From IMG/VR virus record IMGVR_UViG_3300025117_000034: a stretch of DNA of 64,000 bases; one strand, given 5' to 3'. Of the stretch, positions 1-50,064 are shown piece after piece (within the stretch, counting starts at the first letter, position 1; every line of letters begins with the position of its first letter). The notes beneath the pieces are model-generated. The model did not search any database. It saw only the letters and a list, made by a program, of their open reading frames with translations, and was not told the origin of the DNA. The DNA is from a virus. Lineage: Duplodnaviria; Heunggongvirae; Uroviricota; Caudoviricetes. Made by a program: the position numbers and the translations under genes.

Positions 1-457
1 GCTGGATAAGCTGACAGTGCCACCCCTGCCACATGAATGTTTCATTACCTCTCACAGGATGAGGCTCAAAGAAGGTCTCAAGGTTGGCATCAAAGCCCTC
101 CATACTCTCGAGACCACCCCGTAAACTCTTGTCCCATAAGTCCGCAAGTACACGTTCGTTGGCAATGAGACACGGCGCAACACTGCTACTTGCACGATTC
201 CTCCAATTGGTTGGCCGCTTCATCCAGTCATAGCGGAGGAATGCCATCTGTTCCAACCCACCTATGTGATCACCATGCAGATGGGAGATATAGATGTCAT
301 TGATATCATTGACAGAGATACCAGCCCTGTGCAATGCAGCAGGAGCCTGATACCCATAGTCAATGAGCATAGTCCTGCCGCACTCCTCCAGCATGAAACA
401 TTGGTTGAAGTTGACATTACTAAATGCGTTGCCACAGCCCAACACTGTTACTTTCAT
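1..457 (-). CDS. MBL-fold metallo-hydrolase (partial; C-terminus beyond window start)
   Basis: Own minus-strand translation from ATG ~457 gives MKVTVLGCGNAFS...ISHLHGDHIGG, with the HxHxDH metallo-beta-lactamase motif. AGGAG RBS 8 nt upstream. No stop before the window edge. Starts 4 nt after the JAB gene stop. Confidence 0.55.
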   Translation of the reverse strand, partial: MKVTVLGCGNAFSNVNFNQCFMLEECGRTMLIDYGYQAPAALHRAGISVNDINDIYISHLHGDHIGGLEQMAFLRYDWMKRPTNWRNRASSSVAPCLIANERVLADLWDKSLRGGLESMEGFDANLETFFEPHPVRGNETFMWQGWHCQLIQ

Positions 458-460
458 AGA

Positions 461-1660
461 TTACACTCCTGTGTGCTCATTAGGTGATTCAATATTTATG
501 TCCTTGTACACTGACGTGAACAGATCAACTGCATCAATGACATTAACGCACGTCCCGCAGTAGTGGCCACCAAGGCATTCCTTGCCCTCACCGCACATAG
601 GCAATGAACCTTCAAGGTTGTAAGCCTTGTAACCCTTGCTGTCAAAGATACTCTTGACCCAATCTGCGAGCTTGTTATTGTGCTTGCAGTCAAAGCAGTC
701 ATTCACACAACCTACGTTACAATTTGCGCAGAAGTGGATATCTGTTTCGGGGGGTGCACTTTCAGCAACCGTCCCGTCCATCGGGTATTCGTCGTCAAAG
801 TTTTCGACAACCGTAACATGCGGGTTAGCATTATCTCGAAAGTTCCCCCGCGTGACGCGGCTCCCCGTGAAAACGTCGTTGTCATACCCGTCCCAGTCAC
901 GCTGCCCATGATACCCAGCAAGAAGACTGCCTTGTGAAGGCGGGGTATACGGTGGGTAGTTGTATGTAGGCTTGACAATGCGCTCAATGTAGTCCGTGAC
1001 CACATCCTTGACCTGTGCATACTCAATGTTGACCTTGATATTCTTGTAGAGGAACTTGCCACAAGGAGTCATGGCCTTGGCAGTGGCAACATAGTTGATC
1101 TCACTGCCCTTCTTGGACAGGACAATGCTATAGTTATAGAGGTTGCGGCACTGCAGATCATCCTGGCCACTATGGAACGACCCCATATCATTGTGGCTAT
1201 GCACCACACCATTGAAACCAGACCCGTCACCATCCACGATTTCCACCATGGTCTTGGTAACTTTCTGCTTCGGGAAGTCCCACTCGGTAATAACACCAGC
1301 ATCATTGACGTTATAGATCATCAACCATTCGTCAGTGGGCAAACGATTCATAAGGTCAGCCCAGATTGCCCACAGCTCAGGAGGAACCACAAGGTCTTTC
1401 GGTGTGGTTGCCTCACTGCAGGCGGTGATACAGGCACTCTTGATACCCAGCGCATCCTTGATACTCTGTTTAGCAGGGTCAGCAACGGTAGTGGCAGCAG
1501 GCGGCATAAGAGAACTCTCCCTTCCAGTAGTGTTAGCAGGCTGTCTGAATCCAACAACACGGGGTGCCGGAGCAGGCGCACCTGCAGCTTTAATGTATTT
1601 CATGTTAGTCTCCACTCTCCTTTTTTCTAAAGCCTTCTTCCAGGCTTTTTTCCTTCCCAT
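461..1660 (-). CDS. JAB/MPN (JAMM) metalloprotease with C-terminal Cys-rich zinc-finger region
   Basis: Has E...HSH-x7-S-x2-D (MVEIV...VVHSHNDMGSFHSGQDD), an exact JAMM motif. C-terminal CxxC/CxxxC clusters. AAGGGG RBS. Follows the E1 gene by 12 nt. Confidence 0.8.
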   Translation of the reverse strand: MGRKKAWKKALEKRRVETNMKYIKAAGAPAPAPRVVGFRQPANTTGRESSLMPPAATTVADPAKQSIKDALGIKSACITACSEATTPKDLVVPPELWAIWADLMNRLPTDEWLMIYNVNDAGVITEWDFPKQKVTKTMVEIVDGDGSGFNGVVHSHNDMGSFHSGQDDLQCRNLYNYSIVLSKKGSEINYVATAKAMTPCGKFLYKNIKVNIEYAQVKDVVTDYIERIVKPTYNYPPYTPPSQGSLLAGYHGQRDWDGYDNDVFTGSRVTRGNFRDNANPHVTVVENFDDEYPMDGTVAESAPPETDIHFCANCNVGCVNDCFDCKHNNKLADWVKSIFDSKGYKAYNLEGSLPMCGEGKECLGGHYCGTCVNVIDAVDLFTSVYKDINIESPNEHTGV

Positions 1661-1671
1661 AAGTGCACCCC

Positions 1672-2775
1672 TTATTGGACGTTAACACCTGCAGCTTGGA
1701 ATTTCGGCTTGAGCAGCTCCATTGCCTGCTTGAGAGCATCCCACTTTTGCTGCTGGAAAATAGTGGTGGGCAAAGTATTGACCATCTCCTGACAGTCAAA
1801 GGAGGCAAATGCATGGATGATGGTAGTATTGGTTACGGAGTGTTCCGGCTCAGCATCAAGAAGACGAGCTCGGATTTCTTCGTCATACCTGCCACGAGCT
1901 AAACAGTCATGTATGTCATCATCCCAATTGCCTTCACGTATCAGATCAGAAACACTATCAGGTGAGTAGTACTCGCAGTTATCACAGTCGCCACGGTTAC
2001 AGTTGTCACAATCACCACGATGGCAATCATCACAATGACCGAGCTTCTTGTTCGCCATTACTTTGGCTTCGGCTTGCACCATGCAAGTATCCGTGAGACA
2101 ATCCTTGACAGCCTCCATAACGAAGTCGGTCACCATGGAACTGTTGCCCATGGCGAGCATGCGCATATCCTCAGTGAAGTTGACCTCACCAGCCATAACA
2201 CTGAACACCGCAAGGGATGCAGCGGTGGCGGCAGGGATTGACCACGACGGAGTAATGGTGTAACCGTTGGTCTCCTCATCAGAGAACGTGAACGGGAATG
2301 CACGGCTGACATTCAGAGTAATACCGTCGTACCCGCACCGCTGATACTGGATGTTATTCTGGCGGCACCACTTGTTAAGCAGCTGCTGTGACTTGACATT
2401 ATCCGTGCAACAGAAGATAACGCTGGCCTCATCAAGGATTGCCACGTTCTCATCAGTGATCTTTTCCTGGTAGCAGGAAACGCTGCAGTCAGGGCGAATC
2501 TTACGGATGAAATTGCGCAGCACCTCGGTCTTGAAACTCCCCACCGCACCTGATTCAAAGGGGAGGCGGTTCAGATTACTGGTCTCCAGCTTATCCATGT
2601 CGTACAATTCAAGGCTCGGGCACCCACTCATAGCCAGGAAGATTGCCACCCAGCTGCCAGTGCCACCGCAACCAACCACCACAGCCCTTGTCGGGACATT
2701 CAGAGGACGACCCAGAGCCGATTCAAGAGCAGTTTGACGTTCGTACAAAGCTCCTTCAACACGAGTAGTTTCCAT
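1672..2775 (-). CDS. E1-like adenylyltransferase (ThiF/MoeB/E1 superfamily) with C-terminal CxxC zinc motif
   Basis: VVVGCGGTGSWVAIFLAMSG...LYDMDKLETSNLNRLPF matches the ThiF Rossmann and D-x-D...SNLNRQ signature. C-terminal CDDCHRGDCDNCNRGDCDNC. Start moved to METTRV (GGAGG RBS) just after the upstream stop. Confidence 0.85.
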   Translation of the reverse strand: METTRVEGALYERQTALESALGRPLNVPTRAVVVGCGGTGSWVAIFLAMSGCPSLELYDMDKLETSNLNRLPFESGAVGSFKTEVLRNFIRKIRPDCSVSCYQEKITDENVAILDEASVIFCCTDNVKSQQLLNKWCRQNNIQYQRCGYDGITLNVSRAFPFTFSDEETNGYTITPSWSIPAATAASLAVFSVMAGEVNFTEDMRMLAMGNSSMVTDFVMEAVKDCLTDTCMVQAEAKVMANKKLGHCDDCHRGDCDNCNRGDCDNCEYYSPDSVSDLIREGNWDDDIHDCLARGRYDEEIRARLLDAEPEHSVTNTTIIHAFASFDCQEMVNTLPTTIFQQQKWDALKQAMELLKPKFQAAGVNVQ

Positions 2776-2779
2776 TATA

Positions 2780-3535
2780 CTATGTAACCTCCCCTTCTTT
2801 CTTGGTTTCTTTCTTATCAACCTTACCGAAGAACTCCTCAACACCAGTGGTCAGCTTGATGATACCCTTCTCTGCCAGATCATTGATGTTGCGCATCCCA
2901 CCATGAGTTCCAGGGCCAATGATCTTCTCAAAGGAAGGGAGCTTAAGCAGGTTATAGCTGCCACCAAGAGAAGACATATTGATTGTCTTGAGCATGCTAC
3001 GAACTTTCTTGCTGCGCTCCACTATGTCAGCATAGCTCTTGGGAGCAGGACGAATATAGGAGCTGAGTTCACCCACGCACAGAAGCTTTTCTGAGGAGTC
3101 ACCATCCCTGTCACGGACACCAAAGTTGTTGTGGAAGTGCGAGCCGACATAAGGCCACTGGGTGAAGTAGACATACTCACCGTTCGGTTCATACACTGCA
3201 CCAATGTACCCATTGAATACTGCAGGCTCAACCATCTTCCAACGCTTGCCATAGCTGTCCAGGATATACTCAATGCGAAGTTCACCTGTGTAGCCAACAA
3301 CGCACATGTAGTTACCCTTGTAGAAACGCACAGGGATCTCAGGACTGTTAATAACTGAGGGCATATTAAACTTTGACTTGCGCAGCTCCCGCATAGCCGC
3401 ATTGATCTGCTCCAGCTTGCCTTTAAATAAACGAGCTAATGAGGGAATGGGTACAGGCTTGTCCATTTCCTTGAATACTTCGACTGTCATGGTCTGCGGA
3501 GAACCATCAGCGGTGTCTTCCTCTTCGTCAGCCAT
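2780..3535 (-). CDS. hypothetical protein; candidate E2/UBC-like fold (HxHNN...LLC)
   Basis: N-terminal helix, then a beta-rich core, then SHFHNNFG...EKLLCVGEL resembling UBC HPN...ICLDIL with a longer insert. Sits between the MIB/HERC2 and E1 genes. Start chosen at MADEEED (GGAGG RBS). Confidence 0.4.
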   Translation of the reverse strand: MADEEEDTADGSPQTMTVEVFKEMDKPVPIPSLARLFKGKLEQINAAMRELRKSKFNMPSVINSPEIPVRFYKGNYMCVVGYTGELRIEYILDSYGKRWKMVEPAVFNGYIGAVYEPNGEYVYFTQWPYVGSHFHNNFGVRDRDGDSSEKLLCVGELSSYIRPAPKSYADIVERSKKVRSMLKTINMSSLGGSYNLLKLPSFEKIIGPGTHGGMRNINDLAEKGIIKLTTGVEEFFGKVDKKETKKEGEVT

Positions 3536-4610
3536 TGCCCTGACCTCCAACTCCATTTATTTCCCACACATGCTCAAACCTGAACTGACCCTGCAGCTGA
3601 GAATCCTTGTTAACACCATGAATAGCGGCAGATCTCTTGTCACGGAGCATAACCATGAATGTGTTGCACAGACCTGCAGACTTTGCCCCATTCATAAGAC
3701 GAACTAGCACTTCCCTGACACGCTTGTTCCCAAGGTCATACAACGGGACACCAAACGCTATGAGCATGACAGACTTGCCCTCACGGTAACGCTTGAATCC
3801 CTTGAGAGCTTTCTCCACCAGCTTTTTATGCTCTTTCTCAGCAGCTTCATTGGTTGAAATCACCTTGGAGTTGATAGCATCAGCAGCTTCCTTGCGCTTG
3901 GCTGCTATCTTTGCTGCATCGTGCTTGGTAACACAGCAGATATGCTTCTTAGCATCATTGTAGGCGTAGTAATAGCTGGCAGTATTGCCCCACATCACCT
4001 CAATGTTATAGATCGTTCCATCCTGTGAGGTGAAATTACGACCTACACCAATCACCCTGCCCTTGCCAGGCTTGCCATTGGTGAAATCCTGATTGCCATA
4101 GCTCCAGTCCCTGCCACGGCGAACCATCATACCAACCTTAAGCTCGGCAGGGTAGTCATCATCGGGAAGCTCAGGAGTTTCCTCCTTCTTTTCGACAGGC
4201 TTCGGTTCCTCCACAACAACGGCAGGAGCTGGGTCGTCATCAGCAAACGGATCAGGATCTTCCACTACTGCAGGTGCCGGAGTGACCAGCACAAAGTCCT
4301 GACGTTCACCACCATACAAGTAACTGTCAGTTCTGTCATTACTATCCCAACGGATTCTGTACCAACGTGAACCAGGGTAGTCTCTGTTGTCTCTTCCTAA
4401 CTCGATAATCTCACCGGCCTGCTCAACACCATGGTAATGATCCTGTGTACCCCATTGCCAGGTAAAACCACGACGAACACGGTCACCAACAGCAGGTACC
4501 CACGGTGTTGCAGCCGGTTCCTGCTGTTGAGCAGGGGCACTGTCAGCCACCGGAGGAGCCACTACTGCTGCCGGTACAGGTGCAGCTGCTGTCAAATCAC
4601 TTAGGCGCAT
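3528..4610 (-). CDS. tandem MIB/HERC2-domain protein with Ala/Pro-rich linker and unknown C-terminal domain
   Basis: Two copies of G.RVRRG..W.WG.QD..G....G.V...........Y...W (VGDRVRRGFTWQWGTQDHYHG... and VGMMVRRGRDWSYGNQDFTNG...) match the MIB/HERC2 consensus. Start MRLSDL with GGGAGGTGG RBS. Confidence 0.8.
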   Translation of the reverse strand: MRLSDLTAAAPVPAAVVAPPVADSAPAQQQEPAATPWVPAVGDRVRRGFTWQWGTQDHYHGVEQAGEIIELGRDNRDYPGSRWYRIRWDSNDRTDSYLYGGERQDFVLVTPAPAVVEDPDPFADDDPAPAVVVEEPKPVEKKEETPELPDDDYPAELKVGMMVRRGRDWSYGNQDFTNGKPGKGRVIGVGRNFTSQDGTIYNIEVMWGNTASYYYAYNDAKKHICCVTKHDAAKIAAKRKEAADAINSKVISTNEAAEKEHKKLVEKALKGFKRYREGKSVMLIAFGVPLYDLGNKRVREVLVRLMNGAKSAGLCNTFMVMLRDKRSAAIHGVNKDSQLQGQFRFEHVWEINGVGGQGNG

Positions 4611-4830
4611 CTTCCACCTCCCCACCATAGATACTCATTATCAAGCTCATTGAAACCTCAGCCCATCGTACAAAGTCAGGGAGGTAAATGTAACCACCCT
4701 TTATATCCTTGACCATATCCATACCCTCTTCGATATGATCGGCTATCTCATCAATTTCGTCATCATCAGGTGGGGCAGACTCAGCCGACACCAGCGGACT
4801 GGGCTTCCCGTTCAGTTGTGCCATATTCAT
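4597..4830 (-). CDS. small acidic hypothetical protein
   Basis: ORF track, 77 aa, D/E-rich. First gene of the colinear run feeding into the MIB/HERC2 operon. Confidence 0.5.
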   Translation of the reverse strand: MNMAQLNGKPSPLVSAESAPPDDDEIDEIADHIEEGMDMVKDIKGGYIYLPDFVRWAEVSMSLIMSIYGGEVEDAPK

Positions 4831-4846
4831 GATGTTTGGTTACCTC

Positions 4847-5086
4847 CTAGAAACTACCGAGTGTACTTTTAGCCATCGTGATAAGCTTGATGCCGAGTTC
4901 CATAAAGTGTTTGGCATCCTGTGTGGGATCACCAGTGTCAATGCTTTCAGCGAGCTCAATGATCTCGTCAAAAATGGCACCAATATCCTGAGTATCGTTG
5001 TCCTCCTCGTTGTCCTCCTCGTTACCGTCCTCGTCAATGTTCTCGTTGTAATTGCTATGCAGATCACTCAAGCGCATAATAGTCAT
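4847..5086 (-). CDS. small highly acidic hypothetical protein (MRLSDL N-terminus)
   Basis: ORF track. Start moved to MTIMRLSDL after an AGGAGG RBS. Shares the MRLSDL N-terminus with the MIB/HERC2 protein. Confidence 0.45.
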   Translation of the reverse strand: MTIMRLSDLHSNYNENIDEDGNEEDNEEDNDTQDIGAIFDEIIELAESIDTGDPTQDAKHFMELGIKLITMAKSTLGSF

Positions 5087-5317
5087 TGTGTTTCCTCCTG
5101 GGCTATGCCCTATTCCTTTGTCCACCATCCAGCTCTGTTCTCTTCAACCAAACCCACGGTAACTGTCTGACCTGTAACATCACATTGACCTGTCTGTAGA
5201 TTCAATGTTGCACTCGGCTTGCCACATGGGCACATATCCAAACCAGAGTGATTATAAGACCACCTGCTGTACTTGTCAACAGCGCACTCCTTAGTTGAGT
5301 GACTACACACTAACAAC

Positions 5318-5560
5318 CTAGGCTTGCTGTCCACTTGAATTTCCCTCCGCATTATTAAACACATGCTCATTGCCGAAGAAAGGAACACACAGCAACTGCT
5401 TAATGCCGTGACAATCCATGGGAATCTTGTTGCAATGAATCTTGTCATCTTTGTGCGGCTTGGCATGGGGACAGGATGCCCCCTTGTCCAGTGATGCACA
5501 GCCCTGCGGACTTATCCTTCCCTGACAAATGTACAGTTGTTCTTCAGCACCACTCACCAT
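5318..5560 (-). CDS. Cys-rich mini-protein, NMV(I/L)P family member (divergent)
   Basis: 80 aa, 8 Cys. C-terminal LLCVPFFGNEHVFNN resembles the family motif. Confidence 0.45.
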   Translation of the reverse strand: MVSGAEEQLYICQGRISPQGCASLDKGASCPHAKPHKDDKIHCNKIPMDCHGIKQLLCVPFFGNEHVFNNAEGNSSGQQA

Positions 5561-5810
5561 TTTGGTCTCCTTTGTTTTCAGGATCGTGTAACAACTTTGG
5601 AATTACCATGTTATCAGCATAGGGCAGACACTTGAAGAAAGGTGTTTTTCCACCAAGCTTTATGCCCCATGTACACATACCTGGTGTGTCACAATATGCA
5701 GTGCATACATGTGGAACTCTATGCCCACACCTTGCATTATGCGTTGGAGAGTGGACACAATGGCCCTGAGCTCTCCCGACACATACCATAAGCTTCTGCT
5801 CAGCATTCAA
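5544..5810 (-). CDS. Cys-rich mini-protein, NMV(I/L)P family
   Basis: 88 aa. C-terminal CLPYADNMVIPKLL. Confidence 0.55.
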   Translation of the reverse strand: MNAEQKLMVCVGRAQGHCVHSPTHNARCGHRVPHVCTAYCDTPGMCTWGIKLGGKTPFFKCLPYADNMVIPKLLHDPENKGDQNGEWC

Positions 5811-6043
5811 GGTTTGCCCACCTCCTTAGGCAGCACCATGTTATCAGCGCATGGTACACACACAGTTTTTACTATTGGCTCACTTACCCAACCACATATC
5901 TCCACATATGTGCACTCAGCACCCTGAAGCTTGTGAGGACCTCTGTGTACACATCGTATAGTATCTCCAAGTGTGGCCACTCCTTCTCTGCAATGCCCAG
6001 ACAACCATCCCGTGCACACATACCATTTAGTATCATCGCTCAA
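5807..6043 (-). CDS. Cys-rich mini-protein, NMV(I/L)P family
   Basis: 78 aa. C-terminal CVPCADNMVLPKEVGKP. ATGA-type junction with neighbours. Confidence 0.55.
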   Translation of the reverse strand: MSDDTKWYVCTGWLSGHCREGVATLGDTIRCVHRGPHKLQGAECTYVEICGWVSEPIVKTVCVPCADNMVLPKEVGKP

Positions 6044-6270
6044 CTATGACCACCCCCGTCCTTTGGAACTATGAAGTTATGTGGTGCATCTACCAAGTAA
6101 CGATCTCGTATAACAGATCGGTCACATAAAAGACTGTACCTCTTCCTGCCGTCAGGCTCTGTTATAGCTTGGGAAATGAATCCAGGATCTATCATTACTC
6201 TCCCACCACACTCTAAACATTTCTGGTCTATACCAAGCTGACCACACACTAAGTACTTTCCAATGACCAT
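6040..6270 (-). CDS. Cys-rich mini-protein (divergent, APHNFIVPKDGG)
   Basis: 76 aa, CxxC pairs. AGGAG RBS. Confidence 0.5.
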   Translation of the reverse strand: MVIGKYLVCGQLGIDQKCLECGGRVMIDPGFISQAITEPDGRKRYSLLCDRSVIRDRYLVDAPHNFIVPKDGGGHS

Positions 6271-6275
6271 AATAC

Positions 6276-6425
6276 CTAGCTCCTGAGTTCAACTTCAATG
6301 TCATCAAGGAGTTTCTGGACACTCTTGCAATACTCTTTCTTGATCTTCTGCTGCTTGTATAGTACCATGAGATCTTCAAGGAATAACCTCAGACGAATAA
6401 GCAGATCACGTGTTTGTGGTGTCAT
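6276..6425 (-). CDS. small ORF (~49 aa) below the track cutoff, ATGA-coupled
   Basis: Own translation MTPQTRDLLIRLRLFLEDLMVLYKQQKIKKEYCKSVQKLLDDIEVELRS. Its ATG overlaps the TGA of 6422..6685. Confidence 0.4.
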   Translation of the reverse strand: MTPQTRDLLIRLRLFLEDLMVLYKQQKIKKEYCKSVQKLLDDIEVELRS

Positions 6426-6685
6426 TTTAGAACCCCTTTCTCCTTAAGCCACTCACCTCTCATACCACCTTTTGGTATAACCATGTTATCATAGAACTGT
6501 ATCATTGGAACATATATTGGTTTAATAGAGCTATTGGTAAACCTCCAACAGGTGCGTTTGTCTCCAGGCTTAATAGACTTCCCAGCAAACCATATTGCAG
6601 GACGGGGTTGTGCGTATGAGCAGTTAGCACTTCTACAGTACTCACTTACATAGGCACAGATGTACGTTTCAGTACCGTGATACAT
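6422..6685 (-). CDS. Cys-rich mini-protein, NMV(I/L)P family
   Basis: 87 aa. MIQFYDNMVIPKGG. Confidence 0.55.
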   Translation of the reverse strand: MYHGTETYICAYVSEYCRSANCSYAQPRPAIWFAGKSIKPGDKRTCWRFTNSSIKPIYVPMIQFYDNMVIPKGGMRGEWLKEKGVLK

Positions 6686-6941
6686 CTATGTCCACCCCCT
6701 TGCTCTTGACCCAGTTAAAATAATGGTCACCCTCAGGTATAGCCATGTTGTCATAGTACTGGATAAGTGGAACTCTGAAATTCTTAATGTCACAACCACG
6801 TGTTTCACCAGGTTTAACACTGGTGCCCATGAACCAGTCTTCAGGCTTCTCTCTTGCGTATACACATACACCAGTGCTTTTACAATATTCACTTACATAG
6901 GCACAGATGAACCATTTAGTTTCTGATTCAGGATTAGGCAT
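6669..6941 (-). CDS. Cys-rich mini-protein, NMV(I/L)P family
   Basis: 90 aa. LIQYYDNMAIPEGDHY. Paralog of 6422..6685 (ICAYVSEYC shared). Confidence 0.55.
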   Translation of the reverse strand: MPNPESETKWFICAYVSEYCKSTGVCVYAREKPEDWFMGTSVKPGETRGCDIKNFRVPLIQYYDNMAIPEGDHYFNWVKSKGVDIDVSRY

Positions 6942-6998
6942 AGGTACTCCTTGATGATGTTGGGTGATTGGTGTAAACTACTGGGGTGAAAAGAGTTA

Positions 6999-7081
6999 TG
7001 GAGCGCACGACTGGGATCGAACCAGCATTTTCAGCTCCTGTTACGATTAACTGCTTAGAAGGCAGACTCGGCTACGTGCGC
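6999..7081 (-). tRNA. tRNA-like element with aberrant cloverleaf (possible tRNA-Arg TCT or pseudo-tRNA)
   Basis: RC gives a 7-bp acceptor stem GCGCACG/CGTGCGC, T-arm GCTGG-TTCGATC-CCAGT and an encoded CCA. The only anticodon-like hairpin is CTGC-CTTCTAA-GCAG (TCT). No D-arm can be formed. Confidence 0.45.
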
Positions 7082-7086
7082 GTTAT

Positions 7087-7551
7087 TCAAGACTTTAACC
7101 AGTGACGTATGGCATTATCAGAGACACCATATTTTCTACCTGTACCACAATATCCTAGTAATTCTACATCATTAAGCAGCATGGCAACAGAAGGTCTTTC
7201 AGCCCTTCTTTGTGATAGTCCCCAGCATTTAACGCTGCAGTACTTTTTGCTATCAATACCACAAACTGAACCACATACAGGACAAATAATAGTTTCTCTT
7301 CTAACCGGATTATGAAGTGCGCAGTGTTGGGAACTGCTGAGAACTTCTAGGTTGGCTCTAGAGTTATTTAGCTTATCTCCATCCTTGTGGTGTACGTGCT
7401 CATCTTTTCTAAGCCATCTCCCCAAGTACATCGAGGCAGCATGCCTATGATAGTACACTTTACCGTTACTAGACAAAGGGTGACCACTGTCCATAAAGTA
7501 CATGTACCCAGTACCAGTATCTAACCTTTGTTTTATGTCTTTATAATACAT
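7087..7551 (-). CDS. HNH homing endonuclease
   Basis: HHKDGDKLNNSRANLEVLSSSQHCALH is an HNH motif. Zn-binding CPVCG...C.VKC. Sits between two tRNA genes. Confidence 0.75.
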   Translation of the reverse strand: MYYKDIKQRLDTGTGYMYFMDSGHPLSSNGKVYYHRHAASMYLGRWLRKDEHVHHKDGDKLNNSRANLEVLSSSQHCALHNPVRRETIICPVCGSVCGIDSKKYCSVKCWGLSQRRAERPSVAMLLNDVELLGYCGTGRKYGVSDNAIRHWLKS

Positions 7552-7587
7552 GCTTATATTATACCATCAACAATGAACTATTTAAAG

Positions 7588-7663
7588 TGGTGGGCAAAGA
7601 CAGAATTGAACTGTCATTGACGACTTATGAGGACGCTGTTCTAAACCATTGAACTATTTGCCC
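7588..7663 (-). tRNA. tRNA-Met (anticodon CAT)
   Basis: RC: GGGCAAA-TA-GTTC-AATGGTTTA-GAAC-A-GCGTC-CTCATAA-GTCGT-CAAT-GACAG-TTCAATT-CTGTC-TTTGCCC-A-CCA. Full cloverleaf with one T-T mismatch in the anticodon stem. Confidence 0.65.
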
Positions 7664-7722
7664 TTAGAGAGGGGGCTGACCCTCGCTGGAGCCAGCCCCC
7701 AACACGTTACTACCTTACAGAA

Positions 7723-8226
7723 CTAGCCCAGGCAGATACCAGCCTTGACCGACTTGCGCACTTCAATCTCATGACCATTGAACACCGCCGGAAGGTCACC
7801 AACCTCGTCCACTTCCTCGCCATTCAGAATGATCGAGAACGAATCAACACCCTGCGAGGCAATGTCAGCCTTCAAGCGCGGCAGCACTTCGTCCGTCGGA
7901 AGAACGGTGATCTCACGGCCAAACAGCGTGTACGAAGTGCGGCTCGCAGCACCCGACAGATCACCCATGCTCATCTCCGCACCAGCCTTGACCGACTTGC
8001 GCACTTCGATGCTGTGGCCATTGAAGATAGCGGGCATATCCCCAACCTCATCAACTTCCTCGCCGTTCAGAACGATGCTGAAGCTGTCAACACCCGCAGC
8101 GGCAATGTCAGCCTTCAGGCGCGGCAGGACCTCATCCGACGGCTGCACCGTAACGTTGCGACCAAACAGCACATAGGTCGTCGTGTTCGTCGTGCCAGCC
8201 AGGTCCTGCATGTTCATGTTCGCCAT
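7723..8226 (-). CDS. tandem beta-grasp (ThiS/MoaD/ubiquitin-like) domain protein, 2 repeats each ending ...VRKSVKAG
   Basis: Two ~80-aa repeats (Y.LFGR..TV...DEVLPRLKADIA..GVDSFSI.LNGEEVDEVGD.PA.FNGH.IEVRKSVKAG). The beta-hairpin, helix, then LNGEEV...IEV...V.AG layout is like ThiS/MoaD. GAGGAG RBS. Confidence 0.5.
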   Translation of the reverse strand: MANMNMQDLAGTTNTTTYVLFGRNVTVQPSDEVLPRLKADIAAAGVDSFSIVLNGEEVDEVGDMPAIFNGHSIEVRKSVKAGAEMSMGDLSGAASRTSYTLFGREITVLPTDEVLPRLKADIASQGVDSFSIILNGEEVDEVGDLPAVFNGHEIEVRKSVKAGICLG

Positions 8227-8356
8227 GTAAATCTCTCCTCGTTACAACTAAGTTCTGCCACCAAGGGTAGCAGGTTTGAATCCTACATCTATAGCTTGTA
8301 ATGAACAGTTATATGTTACGTGCCATCCTACCCTCCCCCAGGACAGATACTACATA

Positions 8357-8575
8357 CTAGGCTTTACCTGTGTGACTAGGTTTTACTTCAACTTTGTGTA
8401 TACCAAATTCTCTGTTTAAAACTGAAGTACACTCAACTTCTACATCATCAACAAAGATATTAAATCCACGTCTATAGTCAATGGATGCTAAGTCACTAAG
8501 AATTCTCTCCCGTATTATTTCAGTTCTACCAACTGGGATAGTTTTACCGAGTATATAATAACTTGTCTTATCCAT
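8357..8575 (-). CDS. single beta-grasp (ThiS/MoaD-like) domain protein, paralog of the 7723..8226 repeats
   Basis: SYYILGKTIPVGRTEIIRERILSDLASIDYRRGFNIFVDDVEVE...HKVEVKPSHTGKA aligns with the repeat unit. Confidence 0.45.
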   Translation of the reverse strand: MDKTSYYILGKTIPVGRTEIIRERILSDLASIDYRRGFNIFVDDVEVECTSVLNREFGIHKVEVKPSHTGKA

Positions 8576-8676
8576 ATAGCACTAACCAGGAAAATTGGGG
8601 CAGCACAGGCAGACAAGAACACTGCCTTGATTTGCCCCGCATTGAGTGCAATCAAACGTTTCCATGTGGTCTCTCC

Positions 8677-9039
8677 TTATCCAAGATCTTTAAGTTTAAA
8701 ACTATTTGACCAAGGGTTCCACCCAACATCCAAGCTACTCTCAATTTTCCTTGCGTCCTCAACCAGTTTATCAATACGTTTAACACCAACTCCAGCTAAT
8801 TCCGCTAGCCTTCTCCAGTCAATCTCAATTTCCCTGCAACCCTCAACATCCATTACAATATAAGGCACTCCATCAGCCCACACATGCGTACAGTAATCAG
8901 GATTTTCAATGTAGTAGTCAATGGTAGTACGTTTGAACCTACCATCTCCGTCACTTCTCAGAAAAATGATTCTGGGATCGGGCTTAGCTTTGTAAGCCTC
9001 CCGTACTTTTTTTCTAAGGACAATATCAGTAGTGGCCAT
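8677..9039 (-). CDS. hypothetical protein
   Basis: ORF track. Start moved to MATTDIV (AAGGAGAG RBS) just after the nadE stop. Confidence 0.5.
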   Translation of the reverse strand: MATTDIVLRKKVREAYKAKPDPRIIFLRSDGDGRFKRTTIDYYIENPDYCTHVWADGVPYIVMDVEGCREIEIDWRRLAELAGVGVKRIDKLVEDARKIESSLDVGWNPWSNSFKLKDLG

Positions 9040-9050
9040 GTGGTCTCTCC

Positions 9051-9836
9051 TTAGAACAGGCGCAGGTAACAGCAAGGGTTATTGCGCTTGAAGTGAGTTG
9101 CTCTCCATCTCTTGATAATAATGTGATCCTTGTACTTCTCCGATCCATTCCAGATATGACTCTTCAGGATCTTATCCACCTCAGCGTAGCTCGATGCACC
9201 AAGCTGGTCAAGGTCGGAGTTGGTGATACCTAGTCCATCAGTAGGCACAGCTTTGATACATGCTTGCAGGGCACGTTTCTGTGCACGTGTCCCCTCATTG
9301 TCCACGATCCATTGGGCGAGCTGGTACACCTCAGTCTTCCAATAGTGCTGAATAGGTGCTATGTCGCCAACGTCCCCATGCAGAGTCCAGAAGCCAAGGA
9401 GATACTCAGTCAGGTTATCCGTGGACAGCACCGCCCCCTGGCATGAAAAGGCAGTGTTGTACAAGTGAATCATACGCACACGAGCCTTAACGTTACCTTT
9501 ACGAATTTTCTCGTTGGGTATATTCAACAAGGAAAGTTGGTGACTGCTAATTAACTCTACCTCGGAGTCAATCTCTGCTTCGAACCACCTATGAGAGTAC
9601 GTCCTACAAATGTCCCTGGCCCTCTTAAGCTCATCAGGTTTGTTAGACTTGGAAGGGAGTGAAACAAGAACCAAAGGAATACCAAGTTCCTTGTTGCAGA
9701 CATGGTAAGCAAGGGCTGCAACGAGTGCACTGTCCACACCACCACTTACACCGAGAACCAGAGACTTAAGCTGTGCCCCCTCAGTGTATCTCTTGAGCCA
9801 TGTACGTATCTTCTTCACCTCAGATTTGCAGTTCAC
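9051..9836 (-). CDS. nadE: NH3-dependent NAD+ synthetase
   Basis: SLVLGVSGGVDSALVAALA PP-loop, GNVKARVRM, TDNLTEYLLGFWTLHGDVGDIAPI and KT.VY align motif by motif with E. coli NadE. Confidence 0.9.
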   Translation of the reverse strand: MNCKSEVKKIRTWLKRYTEGAQLKSLVLGVSGGVDSALVAALAYHVCNKELGIPLVLVSLPSKSNKPDELKRARDICRTYSHRWFEAEIDSEVELISSHQLSLLNIPNEKIRKGNVKARVRMIHLYNTAFSCQGAVLSTDNLTEYLLGFWTLHGDVGDIAPIQHYWKTEVYQLAQWIVDNEGTRAQKRALQACIKAVPTDGLGITNSDLDQLGASSYAEVDKILKSHIWNGSEKYKDHIIIKRWRATHFKRNNPCCYLRLF

Positions 9837-11005
9837 ACAATCCTCCCGAACACTTGATTGAGATAGGCTAAGTAGCCATCATCCTCACACATCTGCTTGC
9901 CCTCGCTGTCACTCAGTTTGGCCACAGGTTGATACTGGCATTCCGTCATTTTTATAACACATTGCAGTGCAGGAACTCCCACATCATTGGTAAGGTTTGT
10001 ACCTATACCGAACGATGTCTTGATGTCATTACCAAACTTATTGTACAGATCAATAGCCTTGGGGATTGTCAGGCAATCCGAGAACACTGCACTCTTGGTC
10101 TTCGGGTCAATACCCATGTCCTTGTACCAACGGATCAGCTGCTCACACCAAGCATATGGATCACCACTGTCATGTCTGCATCCATCGTACAACTTGGCGA
10201 AGTACAGATCAAAGTCCTTGAGGAACGCCTTGAACCCAACAACGTCTGACAGGGCAATACCAAGATCACCACGGTACTCATCAACCCATTTCTGTAGCAT
10301 GAACTTCTGGGAATCAATGAGCCGAGGACCAAGTGCCTGACCAGCTTGGAGCCATTCATGTGCCATGGTTCCAATGGGTTTCACCCTGTGCTTCATTGCA
10401 AGGTACACATTGGATGTGCCAATGAACTTCTCAGGACATGTGCTGGCAAGGTGACCAACCACATAGTCCTGCCAGTACTTGCTGAACCTGCGCCGTGTAC
10501 CAAAGTCAGCGAACCTGAACCCTGTGGGAGCAAGGCATATATCACTGACTTTCTTGAGCAGTCGTACCTGACCCTCACCCCAGAGGATTGACTCATTCTG
10601 GGTGTGGTTGTAGTACACCTCATTGACAATGGAGAGGATGAGGGTCTCAAAGTAAATGGTCAGAAACCAGGGTCCCTCAATGGTTATACCGAGGTCCCCG
10701 TTGTCCAATGCTTTAACTGTGATGTACTTGGCATTGGGCTTGTACATCTCGAGGAAGTCAATGTAATCAGGCTTGAGGAACCTTATGGTTCGGAGGTACT
10801 CAATCTCCTGCCAATTGAACTTGAGCTCACACATCTGAATGATCTCGCTCTTGATCTCCTCAGCGAATCTGCCAAGCTCTGCCCCTGCTGTTCGGCATTT
10901 AAACTTGTACTTGACATGTGCCCCTGGGAACTGGTGAAACACAGCTTGTCCCATGCTTAATTTGTAACTGTCTAAATCTAGCAGACTTGTGATTATTCCT
11001 CCCAT
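9833..11005 (-). CDS. pncB: nicotinate phosphoribosyltransferase
   Basis: LLDLDSYKLSMGQAVFHQFPGAHVKYKFKCR matches LLDTDAYKLHMQQAVFH...EFRCR. FGTRRRFS, GTSNV..A and GTMAHEW are all conserved versus E. coli PncB. Confidence 0.9.
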   Translation of the reverse strand: MGGIITSLLDLDSYKLSMGQAVFHQFPGAHVKYKFKCRTAGAELGRFAEEIKSEIIQMCELKFNWQEIEYLRTIRFLKPDYIDFLEMYKPNAKYITVKALDNGDLGITIEGPWFLTIYFETLILSIVNEVYYNHTQNESILWGEGQVRLLKKVSDICLAPTGFRFADFGTRRRFSKYWQDYVVGHLASTCPEKFIGTSNVYLAMKHRVKPIGTMAHEWLQAGQALGPRLIDSQKFMLQKWVDEYRGDLGIALSDVVGFKAFLKDFDLYFAKLYDGCRHDSGDPYAWCEQLIRWYKDMGIDPKTKSAVFSDCLTIPKAIDLYNKFGNDIKTSFGIGTNLTNDVGVPALQCVIKMTECQYQPVAKLSDSEGKQMCEDDGYLAYLNQVFGRIV

Positions 11006-11670
11006 AGAACACGTCCGTCAAGGATAGGAGCAAGCCCTGTGATCTTGTCAATGAATCTGACGTTCTTGCCAGCAAAGCGTTTCTTGGTGTCCTCCACTGC
11101 TGTGTCACCAATACCCCTGCAGGCAGCGAGGTTGATGACCACACGGAAGCCAGCGGACACAAGCTGCTCAGAGGTGGTAGCCACGCAGTAATTAGTGGCA
11201 AGGCCCCCAACGATCACCAGCTTAATCCCCTTGCTGAACAGGAACTCAATGACCCCTGTGCTCAGCTTGTTGAACAGATCATGGAAGCATGCGCCGTACG
11301 GGTGGAGATTAGGCTCACAGCCCTTCCATACAAAAAAGTCGTACTCCGTAACATCAGGAAGACCATCCAGCAACTCACAGCCAGTGCTGCCTGTTACACA
11401 ATGGGACGGCCAGTGAATGTCCACATTGGGAAGACCAACAGGGGAAAACGGGGGGTGATCACCATCAGCGTTCCACATAGCCCAAGCAGGGTGGGCATCC
11501 TTGGAGCCAACGCGATAAGCAGCGAACAATGCCTGCTTGTTAAGTTCATTGACGATCTCAAGAGCCCCAGGGACAGGGAGCTCAGCAGGGCAGAGTTCAC
11601 TGAACCCCTTCTGAGCATCCACATCAAAGCTGGCAATGTATTTCTTGTCAATAGCCATATCTTGTGCCAC
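10993..11670 (-). CDS. pncA: nicotinamidase / isochorismatase-family hydrolase (PncA-like)
   Basis: FDVDAQKGF Asp, Lys, and catalytic Cys in ATNYCVATT, plus the isochorismatase fold pattern. Overlaps the pncB start. Confidence 0.75.
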   Translation of the reverse strand: MAQDMAIDKKYIASFDVDAQKGFSELCPAELPVPGALEIVNELNKQALFAAYRVGSKDAHPAWAMWNADGDHPPFSPVGLPNVDIHWPSHCVTGSTGCELLDGLPDVTEYDFFVWKGCEPNLHPYGACFHDLFNKLSTGVIEFLFSKGIKLVIVGGLATNYCVATTSEQLVSAGFRVVINLAACRGIGDTAVEDTKKRFAGKNVRFIDKITGLAPILDGRVLWEE

Positions 11671-11675
11671 CTTTC

Positions 11676-11945
11676 TTAGAGAGAGCTAAAAAATTTGTGC
11701 ATCCTCCACAGCAAACCACCATCAAAGTCCTTGCAATGATTGTCGTAGTTACGCTCATTACAAGAGCTTTGAAATATGGATTTCTTTTCAATGCAGTGAT
11801 CTTCAATGATGATGTTACTCTCATGAATACAGAAATGAAATGGAGACCCGATGGTGTATCTATGGAAGATACACTTAGAACAGTACACCTTAACAGGCTC
11901 AACTTTTTTCTCGTTTTCATTTACACCAAGATCGGATAGCTTCAT
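11676..11945 (-). CDS. Cys-rich mini-protein (MKLSDL family)
   Basis: 89 aa. MKLSDLG...KVYCSKCIF. Paralog of the next gene. Confidence 0.55.
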   Translation of the reverse strand: MKLSDLGVNENEKKVEPVKVYCSKCIFHRYTIGSPFHFCIHESNIIIEDHCIEKKSIFQSSCNERNYDNHCKDFDGGLLWRMHKFFSSL

Positions 11946-12250
11946 TATTTCTCCTTCTCATCGAAGTACCCAAGGAACCGTTTGACACGGAACATAAACT
12001 TTCCCTTGAAGTTCTTGCACTTGTTGTCACCATTGAGGAACAGGCACATCTCATCGGAAATTTTATTGTAACTACGCCGCAACGGGCTTGAGTAGCCAAC
12101 CATGTTTGACGGGTGCACACAAGTGCTGAGTGTCAGTTGGTGGACTTTTTCCTCCATATAAATGCATTCTTCGCAGTACACCTTGGGAGTATTGTCAATA
12201 ACCTTAGGAGTATTGTCAATAACCTTAGGTTCAAAGTCGGTGAGTTTCAT
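11945..12250 (-). CDS. Cys-rich mini-protein (MKLTDF; contains 7-aa tandem PKVIDNT repeat)
   Basis: Start moved to MKLTDFEPKVIDNTPKVIDNTPKVYCEECIY. A 21-nt direct repeat at 12185..12230. Confidence 0.55.
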   Translation of the reverse strand: MKLTDFEPKVIDNTPKVIDNTPKVYCEECIYMEEKVHQLTLSTCVHPSNMVGYSSPLRRSYNKISDEMCLFLNGDNKCKNFKGKFMFRVKRFLGYFDEKEK

Positions 12251-17003: not shown

Positions 17004-17135
17004 TTAGTTTACCAGCTCTTCAACAATGTTGTTACCCACTTTCCAGTAATAAGTCCAGCCACCCCCTTTGCGTGACCGTGCATACATGAACCATCCGAAT
17101 ACCTCTCCGAACTTTTTATAGATAGGTGAGCTCAT
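17004..17135 (-). CDS. small ORF (~43 aa), ATGA-coupled to the repeat-protein gene
   Basis: Own translation MSSPIYKKFGEVFGWFMYARSRKGGGWTYYWKVGNNIVEELVN. Its ATG overlaps the TGA of 17132..18157. Confidence 0.3.
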   Translation of the reverse strand: MSSPIYKKFGEVFGWFMYARSRKGGGWTYYWKVGNNIVEELVN

Positions 17136-24749: not shown

Positions 24750-25271
24750 TTACTTCTTGGCGATGCGCTGCTCCTTGACAACCTCGACCTGACCCTTGGC
24801 CATCAGGGCATTGGCGATCTTCGCACCAAAGGCCTTCTTCAGGCCCGCTGCCGTGGCCGTGACGGCAACGATACCATTGTGCGCGTCCTCGACCTTGACT
24901 TCGCCCGTCGGCTTCACAGCGTCACTGTAGAGCCCTTCCACGCCCGTCAGCTCCTGCAGCTTCTGTGCCGTGGTGAAGGCCGCTTCCCGCAGCTGTGCCG
25001 TGTCCGTGAGCTTCACCTGCTCGACCTCTTCCACCGGCAGAAGCCCAGCGTCCACAATGGCCTGCAGCGTCTCGCTCTGCACAGCCATGGCATCCTTGAC
25101 CGCATCCCGCGCAGCCGTCACCGCCCGCCGCTGATCGGCCAGAAGGGCCCGCAGCTCCCGATGGGACTTCTGCTTCAACTGCGCCAGCAACGCCGAGTCC
25201 TTGACACTGGGCTCACCTGCGACAAGCTCAAAGCCTGCCGGTACAACACTGTTCAACAATGCATTAGCCAT
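24750..25271 (-). CDS. hypothetical Ala/Glu/Lys/Val-rich protein on a GC-rich island (moron)
   Basis: The ORF is clearly more GC-rich than its flanks. Start moved to MANALL (AAGGGG RBS). Terminator downstream and hairpins upstream. Confidence 0.5.
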   Translation of the reverse strand: MANALLNSVVPAGFELVAGEPSVKDSALLAQLKQKSHRELRALLADQRRAVTAARDAVKDAMAVQSETLQAIVDAGLLPVEEVEQVKLTDTAQLREAAFTTAQKLQELTGVEGLYSDAVKPTGEVKVEDAHNGIVAVTATAAGLKKAFGAKIANALMAKGQVEVVKEQRIAKK

Positions 25272-50056: not shown

Positions 50057-50064
50057 AGAGAATG

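Follow-up and report, generated by a model that had tools for sequence, protein, structure and literature searches.

A tailed-phage locus with double-unit ubiquitin-like genes, an E1-like enzyme and a JAB/JAMM peptidase probably encodes a protein-tagging system of its own

The stretch of DNA analysed here, referred to as the window, comprises 64,000 nucleotides of a tailed phage (IMG/VR record IMGVR_UViG_3300025117_000034). On its minus strand lies P0001 (7723..8226), a gene for a 167-aa protein made of two ubiquitin-like (Ubl) units, an assignment based on repeat structure, the family profile and a beta-grasp model. Unit 1 (aa 4-82) is encoded at 7981-8217 and unit 2 (aa 85-163) at 7738-7974, with an AE spacer between them (7975-7980) and an ICLG tail (7726-7737) ahead of the stop codon (7723-7725), all on the minus strand. 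The units are 79 aa long and align without gaps at 76% identity, with a local score of 318 against 25 +/- 4.5 for shuffled sequences (z = 65), in agreement with the original prediction of two repeats of about 80 aa ending in KAG. Both end in KSVKAG, followed by AE-MSMGDLSG after unit 1 and by ICLG and the stop after unit 2, the very tails quoted in that prediction. An independent family profile matches the protein as two domains (E = 4.6e-36). Weak Pfam matches to Cj1289-like_C (4.5e-5, under the cut-off), Mfa_like_2 and others were discarded as sub-threshold and at odds with the fold.

P0001 is a genuine coding sequence, as indicated by its dN/dS, its Shine-Dalgarno sequence and a hairpin 3′ of the gene. 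Among the four phage units, taken from both double-unit genes, dN/dS is 0.09-0.26 at a dS of 0.5-1.8. The Shine-Dalgarno sequence GAGGAG (8233..8238, minus strand), 6 nt 5′ of the ATG, and the GC-rich hairpin GGGGGCTG...CAGCCCCC (7671..7700, minus strand), located 3′ of the stop codon and 5′ of a tRNA-Met gene, were both read from the sequence. The hairpin is likely a transcript end or a processing structure, and was missed by a consensus terminator scan because it has no T-run. The tRNA-Met gene (7588-7663) is the sole tRNA found there by Rfam and ARAGORN, and a tRNA-like stretch suspected 5′ of P0001 was accordingly dropped. GC3 reaches 0.70 in P0001 and 0.65 in the second double-unit gene, P0002, against a window mean of 0.49; together with the strong Shine-Dalgarno sequence, these values fit a protein required in stoichiometric amounts, as a hint at expression. 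The major capsid gene has a GC3 of just 0.54, and the high GC3 of the double-unit genes could alternatively stem from recent acquisition rather than from high expression.

P0002 lies just beyond the window and follows the JAB gene at a distance of 1.3 kb, in a co-directional run with the E1 and JAB genes that continues from JAB through an Apyc1-like metallo-beta-lactamase (MBL) gene and a 73-aa gene to P0002. Its 161-aa product also has two units, is 80% identical to that of P0001 and ends in KAG-RQ; its spacer is AQ, where P0001 has AE, and its second unit begins with Leu, not Met. A further copy in the window (8357..8575, minus strand) encodes a divergent single-unit paralog of 72 aa, recognized by a shuffle test and the family profile, which brings the phage total to five Ubl domain copies, three of them in window ORFs. 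Against the two P0001 units the 72-aa ORF gives z = 9.6 and 13.7, a score reached by none of 500 shuffles, and among 1406 six-frame segments it is found at E = 7e-5 by A3, a profile made from unrelated bacterial family members alone, with zero phage sequences, whose sole further matches are the two double-unit genes. This neighbour is thus a third paralog, as originally proposed, and ends as described then in HTGKA (...KPSHTGKA, or HTG-KA). It has no N-terminal MNLxEL motif, its GC3 is 0.22 and it is preceded by no clear ribosome-binding site; the available phage contigs are 99.99-100% identical to one another and offer no strain variation to test it, so that its coding status rests solely on the family match. 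With its Gly displaced by one position, this copy may be a decaying or non-conjugatable paralog.

A profile search gave 25 matches at E <= 0.001, of which four (P0008, P0018, P0022, P0023), all large repeat proteins, were discarded as spurious. A second search with alignment A2 recovered 103 proteins, and the family now counts about 110 relatives, with zero matches in Pfam, NCBIfam, PHROG or PADLOC. An earlier word-indexed protein search had returned P0001 and P0002 alone, and it took the exhaustive profile search to reveal the family. Against a phage collection, neither the region nor P0001 gave a match in blastn and tblastn at the sensitivity used. At the C-terminus, a Gly stands among the last five residues in 113/113 complete family proteins, the ending being KAG in 96/113, KPG in 10/113 and GG in a single one (1/113), so that homologs do keep the C-terminal pair of small residues anticipated for them. 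Beyond this Gly, 54 of the 113 proteins have no tail, 36 have a single C and the remainder carry other tails of 1-4 residues, the residue following the Gly being strongly variable across the family. A Gly this well conserved, ahead of tails that vary from 0 to 4 residues, reads as the pattern of a Ubl precursor. The proteins form a new gene family, previously without annotation, whose reactive end is a conserved Lys-Ala-Gly.

An alignment-based model of one unit has the beta-grasp fold (beta-beta-alpha-beta-beta-beta), with pLDDT < 50 in the tail (model residues 79-83), and the fold is read from this single-unit model only. Single-sequence AlphaFold2 prediction of the 167-aa protein was unusable (pLDDT 37). 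The beta-grasp part of the proposed ThiS/MoaD resemblance is therefore retained; a specific affinity to ThiS/MoaD is not, given the A-G end and the lack of any match of the phage Ubl to Pfam ThiS at E <= 1 or, at the sequence level, to other Pfam or PDB entries. Likewise, the Prok_Ub and Multi_ubiq (Bub-type) profiles gave no match at E <= 1 in the phage proteins and one Omnitrophota member.

Two further family members, P0004 and P0005, are double-unit proteins as well. Their layouts, KAG-MDLGDL...KAG-K in P0004 and KAG-MDLADL...KAG-N in P0005, compare with KAG-AE-M...KAG-ICLG in P0001 and KAG-AQ-L...KAG-RQ in P0002; in P0004 and P0005 there is no linker, and unit 2 starts with its Met immediately after the KAG that closes unit 1. 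The internal junction KAG is thus kept in 4/4 double-unit proteins, the inter-unit dS in the phage being about 0.9. Directly 3′ of the P0005 gene lie the genes for protein X (see below) and E1, and directly 3′ of the P0004 gene lies an X gene, where the 1470-bp contig stops. Occupying the same operon slot as single units, these double units would be substrates too.

Gene linkage ties the family to a defined set of enzymes. In 20/21 sufficiently long loci, mostly from Candidatus Omnitrophota and including the complete genome NZ_CP019384.1, the genes follow the order Ubl-X-E1-JAB, with single-unit Ubl homologs directly upstream of homologs of the window X, E1 and JAB genes, and the suspected association of the Ubl genes with E1 and JAB is thereby supported. 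The same order occurs on two IMG/VR viral contigs found via the E1 alignment; the tighter Ubl alignment A3 found zero loci in viral contigs. Further neighbours in the operons, besides X, are SpoVG, DUF2958 and an integrase. In Omnitrophota and other bacteria from groundwater the family is carried on the chromosome, and the phage, of about 140 kb, is known from groundwater metagenomes.

In the phage, the enzyme genes are all on the minus strand. The E1-like adenylating enzyme (1672..2775; the ORF reaches 2844) is a 367-aa protein of the ThiF fold (Pfam ThiF, 1.9e-30) with a GCGGTG nucleotide loop, an FCCTDN motif and a C-terminal region with three CxxC, and shares 41-47% identity with the E1 proteins of the operons (E about 1e-50). 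These short E1 proteins (310-367 aa) have no separate catalytic-Cys domain that could be identified, so a thioester relay through the enzyme stays an inference. The JAB/JAMM metallopeptidase (461..1660, 399 aa) matches Pfam Prok-JAB at 1.9e-4, under the gathering score, and its Omnitrophota ortholog at 1.1e-6, above the cut-off; the phage protein has an intact motif H154-S-H-x7-S-x2-D167, its C-terminal region is rich in Cys, and it shares 35-41% identity with the JAB proteins of the operons (E about 1e-20 to 1e-24). It is a candidate for processing the Ubl precursors and for deconjugation.

Protein X (2780..3556, 258 aa) is related to the operon X proteins at up to E = 2e-13 by tblastn, with 29% identity, and its bacterial counterpart is encoded between the Ubl and E1 genes. 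Across nine diverse members, His140 and Cys160-x-Gly162 never vary. A search for known E2 proteins gave no Pfam, NCBIfam, PADLOC or PDB-profile match, a further homolog search yielded nothing informative, and hhalign against four eukaryotic E2 sequences returned a probability of 0.1; operon position and the invariant His and Cys make X a candidate E2-like carrier. The start of its gene is overlapped by that of a MIB_HERC2 protein (3528..4628, 366 aa), whose two domains match PF06701 in two stretches (6.8e-14, 52 bits against a cut-off of 33.5). The MIB/HERC2 domain is otherwise typical of eukaryotic E3 ligases, and the phage protein, which is phage-specific and has no counterpart in the bacterial operon loci, is a candidate E3-like factor for target recognition.

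The N-terminal 152 codons of the Apyc1-like MBL gene fall within the window (1..457, minus strand), the gene following JAB and preceding P0002 in the full-contig gene order. It matches Pfam Anti-Pycsar_Apyc1 with 67 bits against a cut-off of 50, and on this above-cut-off match a role beside JAB as partner in a 6A-MBL-type system was rejected. The window Ubl genes are 3-5 kb from the enzyme genes, close to the 4-5 kb first estimated for their distance from the E1/JAB operon (E1 ORF end at 2775/2844), with an HNH endonuclease gene, the tRNA gene and a series of short genes for Cys-rich proteins in between, a separation that weighs against a joint system. The locus sits among genes of counter-defence type (Apyc1 and NAD salvage), neighbours that suggest a counter-defence purpose.

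Taken together, the phage probably has a ubiquitin-like tagging system of its own, and we put the chance at roughly 60% that its Ubl proteins are polyubiquitin-like precursors from which the JAB peptidase removes what follows the Gly, and which E1 then activates for conjugation to targets. The double-unit proteins would be synthesised as such precursors; the JAMM peptidase would cut after every KAG, which would strip off the tails (ICLG, RQ or KA) and probably split the units as well; E1 would adenylate the exposed Gly carboxylate; and the modifier, taken over by a cysteine that is probably one of X, would end up during infection on lysines of proteins from the host or the phage. Target choice may fall to the MIB/HERC2 protein, and the JAMM enzyme would be able to reverse the modification. 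The analysis establishes the fold, the family, the conserved Gly and its varying tails, the gene linkage, the enzyme homology and the intact JAMM motif; precursor cleavage, thioester transfer, conjugation, the E2 role of X, the targets and the biological purpose are what we infer.

An alternative reading takes the double units as uncleaved two-domain modifiers, comparable to ISG15, FAT10 or Type I BilA, in which trimming is confined to the short C-terminal tail and the internal KAG is left over from the duplication. The two-residue spacers of P0001 and P0002 (AE, AQ) and the Leu at the start of unit 2 in P0002 would suit such a protein, and there are precedents in the Type I Bil Ubls, two fused beta-grasp domains conjugated in one piece (10.1101/2023.09.04.556158), and in the multi-beta-grasp Ubls common in Type II Bil/Bub operons, for which cutting apart is not reported (PMC11601603). 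We nevertheless consider it unlikely that the units stay joined, since KAG stands exactly at the junction in 4/4 independent double-unit proteins and is fused in P0004 and P0005, without a linker, to a complete N-terminal motif that includes the Met. A dS of about 0.9 between the phage units with a dN/dS of about 0.2 indicates in addition that the junction has long been maintained, and the highly variable post-Gly residue across the family implies that the peptidase should accept the internal junction.

Two other explanations dispense with productive tagging of proteins. If the Ubl proteins were sulfur carriers of the ThiS/MoaD/CysO/QbsE type, JAB would expose the Gly and E1 would adenylate it for a thiocarboxylate serving a thio-cofactor, a modified nucleoside or a metabolite, with no protein conjugation; the conserved operon contains neither a rhodanese nor a cysteine desulfurase, ThiG, MoaE, TtuA or CysM (ThiG, MoaE, rhodanese, CysM and TtuA being absent from the Pfam matches of operon-locus and phage-locus genes alike), the proteins end in A-G or P-G, not G-G, and Pfam ThiS is not matched. 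What does fit a conjugation system is the head-to-tail pairing of units, a partner whose Cys is invariant, and an adjoining protein with a domain of eukaryotic E3 ligases; the sulfur-carrier explanation is accordingly improbable. Still less credence is due to the idea that the phage copies are decoys or inhibitors, not productive modifiers, that jam a host Ubl-X-E1-JAB system, possibly a Bil-like defence. A chromosomal family in Omnitrophota and other groundwater bacteria, a phage that is also from groundwater, the Apyc1 and NAD-salvage surroundings, and five domain copies with two genes of very high GC3 would all be in keeping with it; the phage nevertheless encodes every enzyme of the set, the E1 being conserved and the JAMM motif intact, and the reactive KAG is kept in all phage units under purifying selection.

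To our knowledge, bacterial Ubl conjugation (CBASS Cap2/Cap3, Bil, Bub) has been studied to date as host machinery, mostly in anti-phage defence. The precursor-and-conjugation reading would place in a phage genome a full system of this type, from a family that Pfam, NCBIfam, PHROGs and PADLOC leave without annotation. Our literature search found nothing relevant on phage-encoded systems of this kind, Omnitrophota ubiquitin, PRTRC or bacterial MIB/HERC2 proteins; the system may have been described before. The work also defines a four-gene operon, widespread in Candidatus Omnitrophota, that current annotation pipelines call hypothetical. More speculatively, and at somewhat under even odds, the phage would own a complete ubiquitination-like machine, with poly-Ubl precursors, E1, a new type of E2-like carrier, a JAMM enzyme and a MIB/HERC2 selector, that tags host (e.g. 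immune) proteins or its own during infection, the reverse of Bil, with gene-encoded linear poly-Ubl in a prokaryotic virus that arose independently at least twice in the family. The double units mimicking eukaryotic polyubiquitin genes and the MIB/HERC2 partner are testable features; owing to the natural Lys-Ala-Gly end, trypsin would leave an Ala-Gly tag on modified lysines. The system bears on what phages gain from protein tagging and on the antiquity of polyubiquitin-style precursors.

Several known systems share parts of this arrangement. Eukaryotic polyubiquitin genes (UBB, UBC, UBI4) encode head-to-tail units, each ending in an activating Gly, with one or more final capping residues, and the Gly fused straight to the next Met recurs in P0004 and P0005; the phage proteins differ in having no homology to ubiquitin, two units only, KAG instead of RGG and a presumed processing by a JAMM enzyme. 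The PRTRC cassette (TIGR03735/TIGR03736) also brings ThiF-family and JAB-like proteins together on mobile, in that case conjugative, elements, and weak matches exist (window E1 to PRTRC_ThiF, 3e-6; Omnitrophota JAB to PRTRC_A, 2.6e-3), far under the family cut-offs; Ubl and X have no match there, and the ParB partner is missing here. In CysO/Mec+ and QbsE/QbsD, as in the scheme proposed for the phage, a JAMM protease removes the residues after the Gly of a beta-grasp protein for ThiF-type adenylation, and it was with these pairs that trimming by JAB was originally compared. Trimming is kept here as a reading, with Type II Bil as the nearer parallel. CysO and QbsE, unlike the phage Ubl, are single-domain and GG-ended, are encoded with sulfur-transfer or biosynthetic enzymes and form thiocarboxylates.

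Type I Bil (10.1101/2023.09.04.556158) resembles the phage locus in encoding a two-beta-grasp Ubl together with an E1 and a JAB peptidase; Bil also encodes an E2 with them. Its BilA has a C-terminal Gly, sometimes with overhangs of 2-9 aa, and the system conjugates its Ubl to proteins during phage infection (10.1101/2023.09.04.556158). The two domains of that Ubl are unlike each other, the first not being described with a reactive Gly end, whereas the phage units are near-identical and each end in KAG. The closest worked-out analogue is Type II Bil (PMC10557695; PMC11601603), judged by its parts: it combines a JAB/JAMM peptidase and an E1 with a small Ubl of the beta-grasp type and with a protein occupying the E2 position, and the Ubl has an Ala-Gly end with a short variable tail whose removal by JAB is known for Bil. 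BilA there ends in ...AG|A, with the JAB peptidase BilC cutting after the Gly, and BilA homologs bear up to nine extra residues (PMC10557695). The likeness does not extend to a detectable sequence relationship: Ubl, X and JAB have no PADLOC or Pfam matches to Bil-type models, the best 25 PADLOC matches of the phage E1 include just CBASS-type E1-E2 models, and in the PDB no Bil-type chain is found among the E1 matches at E <= 0.001 and no match at all for JAB at E <= 1. The phage family differs further in its order Ubl-X-E1-JAB, in an X unrecognisable as a BilB-type E2, in a compact ThiF/MoeB-like E1 and in the added MIB/HERC2 protein, and its carrier is a lytic-type tailed phage, not a bacterial defence island. 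Bil is a host defence against phages and the present system is encoded by a phage; by analogy, the locus is best read as a phage-borne, new variant of Bil-like bacterial ubiquitination.

The 167-aa protein encoded at 7723-8226(-), designated P0001, is composed, as originally predicted, of two repeats of about 80 aa, now delimited as 79-aa units at aa 4-82 and 85-163. The units are 76% identical without gaps, their alignment lying 65 standard deviations over shuffled controls, and both start with M-x-M-x-D-L and end in KSVKAG; the AE spacer between them and the C-terminal ICLG tail are arranged as the prediction described. The third paralog that it proposed is also recovered, the 72-aa protein of ORF 8357-8575(-) sharing 25-33% identity with either unit (z = 10-14) and ending KPSHTG-KA. 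A second double-unit protein, P0002, is encoded on the full contig just past the window start; 161 aa long, it shares 80% identity with P0001 and has the C-terminus KAG-RQ, bringing the phage total to five copies of the ubiquitin-like modifier (Ubl) domain. The closest pairs are unit 1 with unit 1 and unit 2 with unit 2 of the two proteins, so the whole double gene was duplicated later than the internal duplication. The four units of these two proteins show dN/dS of 0.09-0.26 with synonymous sites near saturation (dS 0.5-1.8), which indicates that every one of them has long been maintained by selection.

A chance or non-coding origin of the 167-aa gene was considered and excluded. The gene is served by a strong GAGGAG ribosome-binding site, and a GC-rich hairpin and then a tRNA-Met gene (7588-7663) lie 3′ of its stop codon; every gene in window positions 1-12000 is on the minus strand. 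GC3 reaches 0.70 and 0.65 in the two double-unit genes (second-highest and among the highest), compared with a window mean of 0.49 +/- 0.10. Together with the ribosome-binding site of the P0001 gene, this fits a protein needed in bulk, although the capsid gene has a GC3 of only 0.54, making recent transfer an alternative explanation. The 72-aa ORF matches the family significantly but lacks a clear ribosome-binding site; its GC3 is very low (0.22), its Gly is displaced by one position, and it may be a degenerate copy. Elsewhere in the window, ORF 24750-25316(-) departs from the phage base composition as the double-unit genes do, with the highest GC (62%) and GC3 (0.76-0.77) of the window; neither PHROG nor Pfam gave a match for its product, in which Ala, Val, Lys and Glu are abundant.

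The phage Ubl proteins match no model in Pfam, PHROG, PADLOC or NCBIfam. An exhaustive profile search of 1.8 billion representative proteins yielded mainly a family of 75-82-aa proteins, plus two further double-unit proteins from other contigs, P0004 and P0005; a follow-up search listed 103 proteins. As an independent check, a profile built from bacterial members only was run on the six-frame translation of the phage region, where it matched P0001 (E = 4.6e-36), P0002 (E = 5.4e-36) and the 72-aa ORF (E = 7e-5) and nothing else. The conserved C-terminal end expected of such modifiers is present throughout: all 113 complete family proteins carry a Gly among their last five residues. KAG is the ending in 96 of them and KPG in 10, and what comes after it is nothing in 54, a lone Cys in 36 and otherwise assorted tails of 1-4 residues. 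At the level of sequence, an invariant, putatively reactive Gly with freely varying residues after it is the signature of a Ubl precursor. The N-terminus is also strongly conserved, reading MNLNEL in 72 proteins and MNM/MSM...DL in the phage units (window 8209-8217 and 7966-7974); this motif, predicted to be disordered (pLDDT below 50) and directly preceded in double-unit proteins by the KAG of the previous unit, may serve for docking or as an acceptor site. Within P0004 and P0005, unit 1 abuts with its KAG the Met-Asp-Leu start of unit 2 without a linker, the arrangement found in eukaryotic polyubiquitin genes. The phage units, 71-82% identical among themselves, share only 26-40% identity with those of P0004 and P0005, implying that tandem fusion arose at least twice.

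Single-sequence AlphaFold2 prediction of the 167-aa protein was unusable (pLDDT 37), and a model of unit 2 from a 25-sequence unit alignment reached a pLDDT of 80.1, with low confidence in the first 12 and last five residues, which are presumably flexible. The predicted fold is the anticipated beta-grasp, running from two strands at the N-terminus through a helix and two more strands to a last one. Foldseek ranks ubiquitin, SUMO and ThiS highest (probabilities of 0.75-0.99), with scores that are modest, as expected of a 70-residue domain, and that do not favour the proposed ThiS/MoaD branch over others of the fold. A profile-to-PDB sequence search with the Ubl family found no match.

The suspected tie between the Ubl proteins and the E1 and JAB (JAMM peptidase) genes is borne out by gene order. 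Bacterial members were placed in 21 genome loci. Most of these are in Candidatus Omnitrophota bins; the others are in the completely sequenced Candidatus Velamenicoccus archaeovorus and in a small number of bins that carry the labels Planctomycetes, Ignavibacteria, Dehalococcoidia and Woesearchaeota. The survey extended to additional metagenome contigs. At each locus a 195-aa gene, termed X, comes no more than about 70-100 bases after the Ubl gene, and 20 of the 21 loci of sufficient length continue with a ThiF-family E1 and then a JAB peptidase. The exception is an Omnitrophota bin (L030), whose truncated E1 gene (about 3962-4312) stops after FCC(M)DN with no JAB gene behind, either a decayed operon copy or an assembly join. 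Homologs of all three partners are encoded in the window: its E1 is 41-47% identical to the operon E1 proteins (E about 1e-50), its JAB 35-41% identical to theirs (E about 1e-20 to 1e-24), and a previously anonymous 258-aa protein (2780-3556(-)) is the X homolog (best E = 2e-13). The P0005 gene is followed by X and E1 genes, and the P0004 gene by an X gene with which its short contig ends, so double units fill the same slot as single ones. Ubl-X-E1-JAB is present on two IMG/VR viral contigs as well, where the Ubl proteins end in KAG-N and KPG-NVLR; a Sak4-like annealing protein is encoded on one of the contigs, and one (L041) has a second, divergent X-like gene (4067-4690) about 1 kb upstream of the set. 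SpoVG-like and DUF2958 genes flank the Omnitrophota operons (L012, L014 and others), and in L012 and L014 an integrase of phage type lies close by, as do genes for a helicase, nuclease or methylase, suggesting carriage on integrative elements or in defence islands.

The phage E1 carries GCGGTG as its nucleotide loop, along with the FCCTDN motif common to the operon E1 proteins and a CxxC-rich C-terminal stretch; among characterised proteins it is closest in sequence to ThiF, MoeB and TcdA, then to the NEDD8, UBA5 and SUMO E1 enzymes. The phage JAB (461-1660(-)) retains an intact JAMM motif, H-x-H-x7-S-x2-D (residues 154-167), and has a Cys-rich C-terminal region. Nine diverse X proteins share few invariant residues, among them His140 and Cys160-x-Gly162, a pattern that, with the gene position, suggests a thioester carrier analogous to E2, from which we infer its role; no sequence method used linked X to any E2. 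Directly upstream of the X gene and overlapping its start lies the gene of a 366-aa protein (3528-4628(-)) with two MIB_HERC2 domains (52 bits; cut-off 33.5), absent from the bacterial operons examined. This domain is familiar from Mind bomb and HERC2, two E3 ligases of eukaryotes.

The analysis establishes a family of beta-grasp modifiers whose terminal Gly is invariant and whose tails vary, its strict linkage in operons to E1, a JAMM peptidase and X, and a full phage gene set. In the Type II Bil pathway, BilA is cleaved by the JAB enzyme, BilC, at the Gly97-Ala98 bond of ...V-A-G-A, after which E1 and E2 conjugate BilA to lysines (PMC10557695). By analogy, the phage JAMM enzyme would cut after KAG, removing ICLG, RQ or KA, and would probably also split the double units; E1 would adenylate the exposed Gly, after which the Ubl would be transferred first to a Cys, probably one of X, and from there to lysines of its targets, for which the MIB/HERC2 protein may act as an adaptor. 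The observation behind the original prediction is confirmed, and its interpretation as a poly-Ubl precursor trimmed by JAB is supported at the level that computation allows.

The main rival is that the double-unit proteins act uncleaved, as a two-domain modifier like ISG15; this is a minority possibility of some weight, and the fact that each of the four double proteins has kept a KAG joined to a complete following unit speaks for cleavage, short of proof. A sulfur carrier, for its part, is unlikely, given the lack of sulfur-transfer partners, the A-G rather than G-G ending, and the conservation of a Cys-bearing partner and a JAB peptidase. That the phage Ubl is a decoy against a host system of the same family is a remote possibility.

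The window belongs to a contig of roughly 139.6 kb with near-identical recoveries in many groundwater metagenomes, assigned to a tailed phage because of its major head protein, head protease and portal genes (48451-53780); a search of the GenBank phage collection found no relative at the sensitivity applied. The Ubl/enzyme cluster forms a tightly packed, co-directional run of the MIB/HERC2, X, E1, JAB and Apyc1-like metallo-beta-lactamase genes, a 73-aa gene and the P0002 gene. The genes around it, among them the Apyc1-like gene, NAD genes and, further on, an RNA ligase, are of a counter-defence kind and hint at a role in phage-host conflict. The metallo-beta-lactamase, immediately after the JAB gene (1-457(-), on past the window start; L008 17770-18648; Pfam Anti-Pycsar_Apyc1, 67 bits, cut-off 50), is probably a nuclease degrading cyclic-nucleotide immune signals, and three consecutive NAD-salvage genes, for NAD synthase (9051-9836(-)), nicotinate phosphoribosyltransferase (9833-11005(-)) and an isochorismatase-family, nicotinamidase-like protein (10993-11670(-)), could restore NAD+ that host defences have depleted. 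The Ubl genes are separated from the remainder of the cluster by the tRNA-Met gene and by an HNH endonuclease gene (7087-7551(-)), whose low GC3 (0.34) suggests a mobile insertion. Between the double-unit gene and the E1 cluster there is also a tandem array of six small (76-90 aa) Cys-rich paralogs (5318-6941(-)), most with a C-terminal DNM[VA]IPK-like motif that is degenerate in two copies, and none with a precomputed Pfam match on the contig. Further away, a 341-aa protein (17132-18157(-)) consists largely of about 30 tandem 7-residue repeats (GDARVYG / GNAQVSG) and strongly matches phrog_7964 (8e-106), whose function is unknown; a 174-aa ORF that overlaps it in another frame, with high GC3, is probably spurious.

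No sequence membership in Bil, Bub (Multi_ubiq, Prok_Ub), ThiS/MoaD or PRTRC was detectable for the phage system, PRTRC giving only weak sub-threshold matches of E1 and JAB, and a literature search found no description of such a phage system, which is not proof that none exists. What is new here is the Ubl/X/E1/JAB family, its carriage by a tailed phage, the head-to-tail double precursors and the MIB/HERC2 partner. By analogy, the system would work like the Bil and Bub bacterial ubiquitination pathways, with precursors that resemble polyubiquitin.
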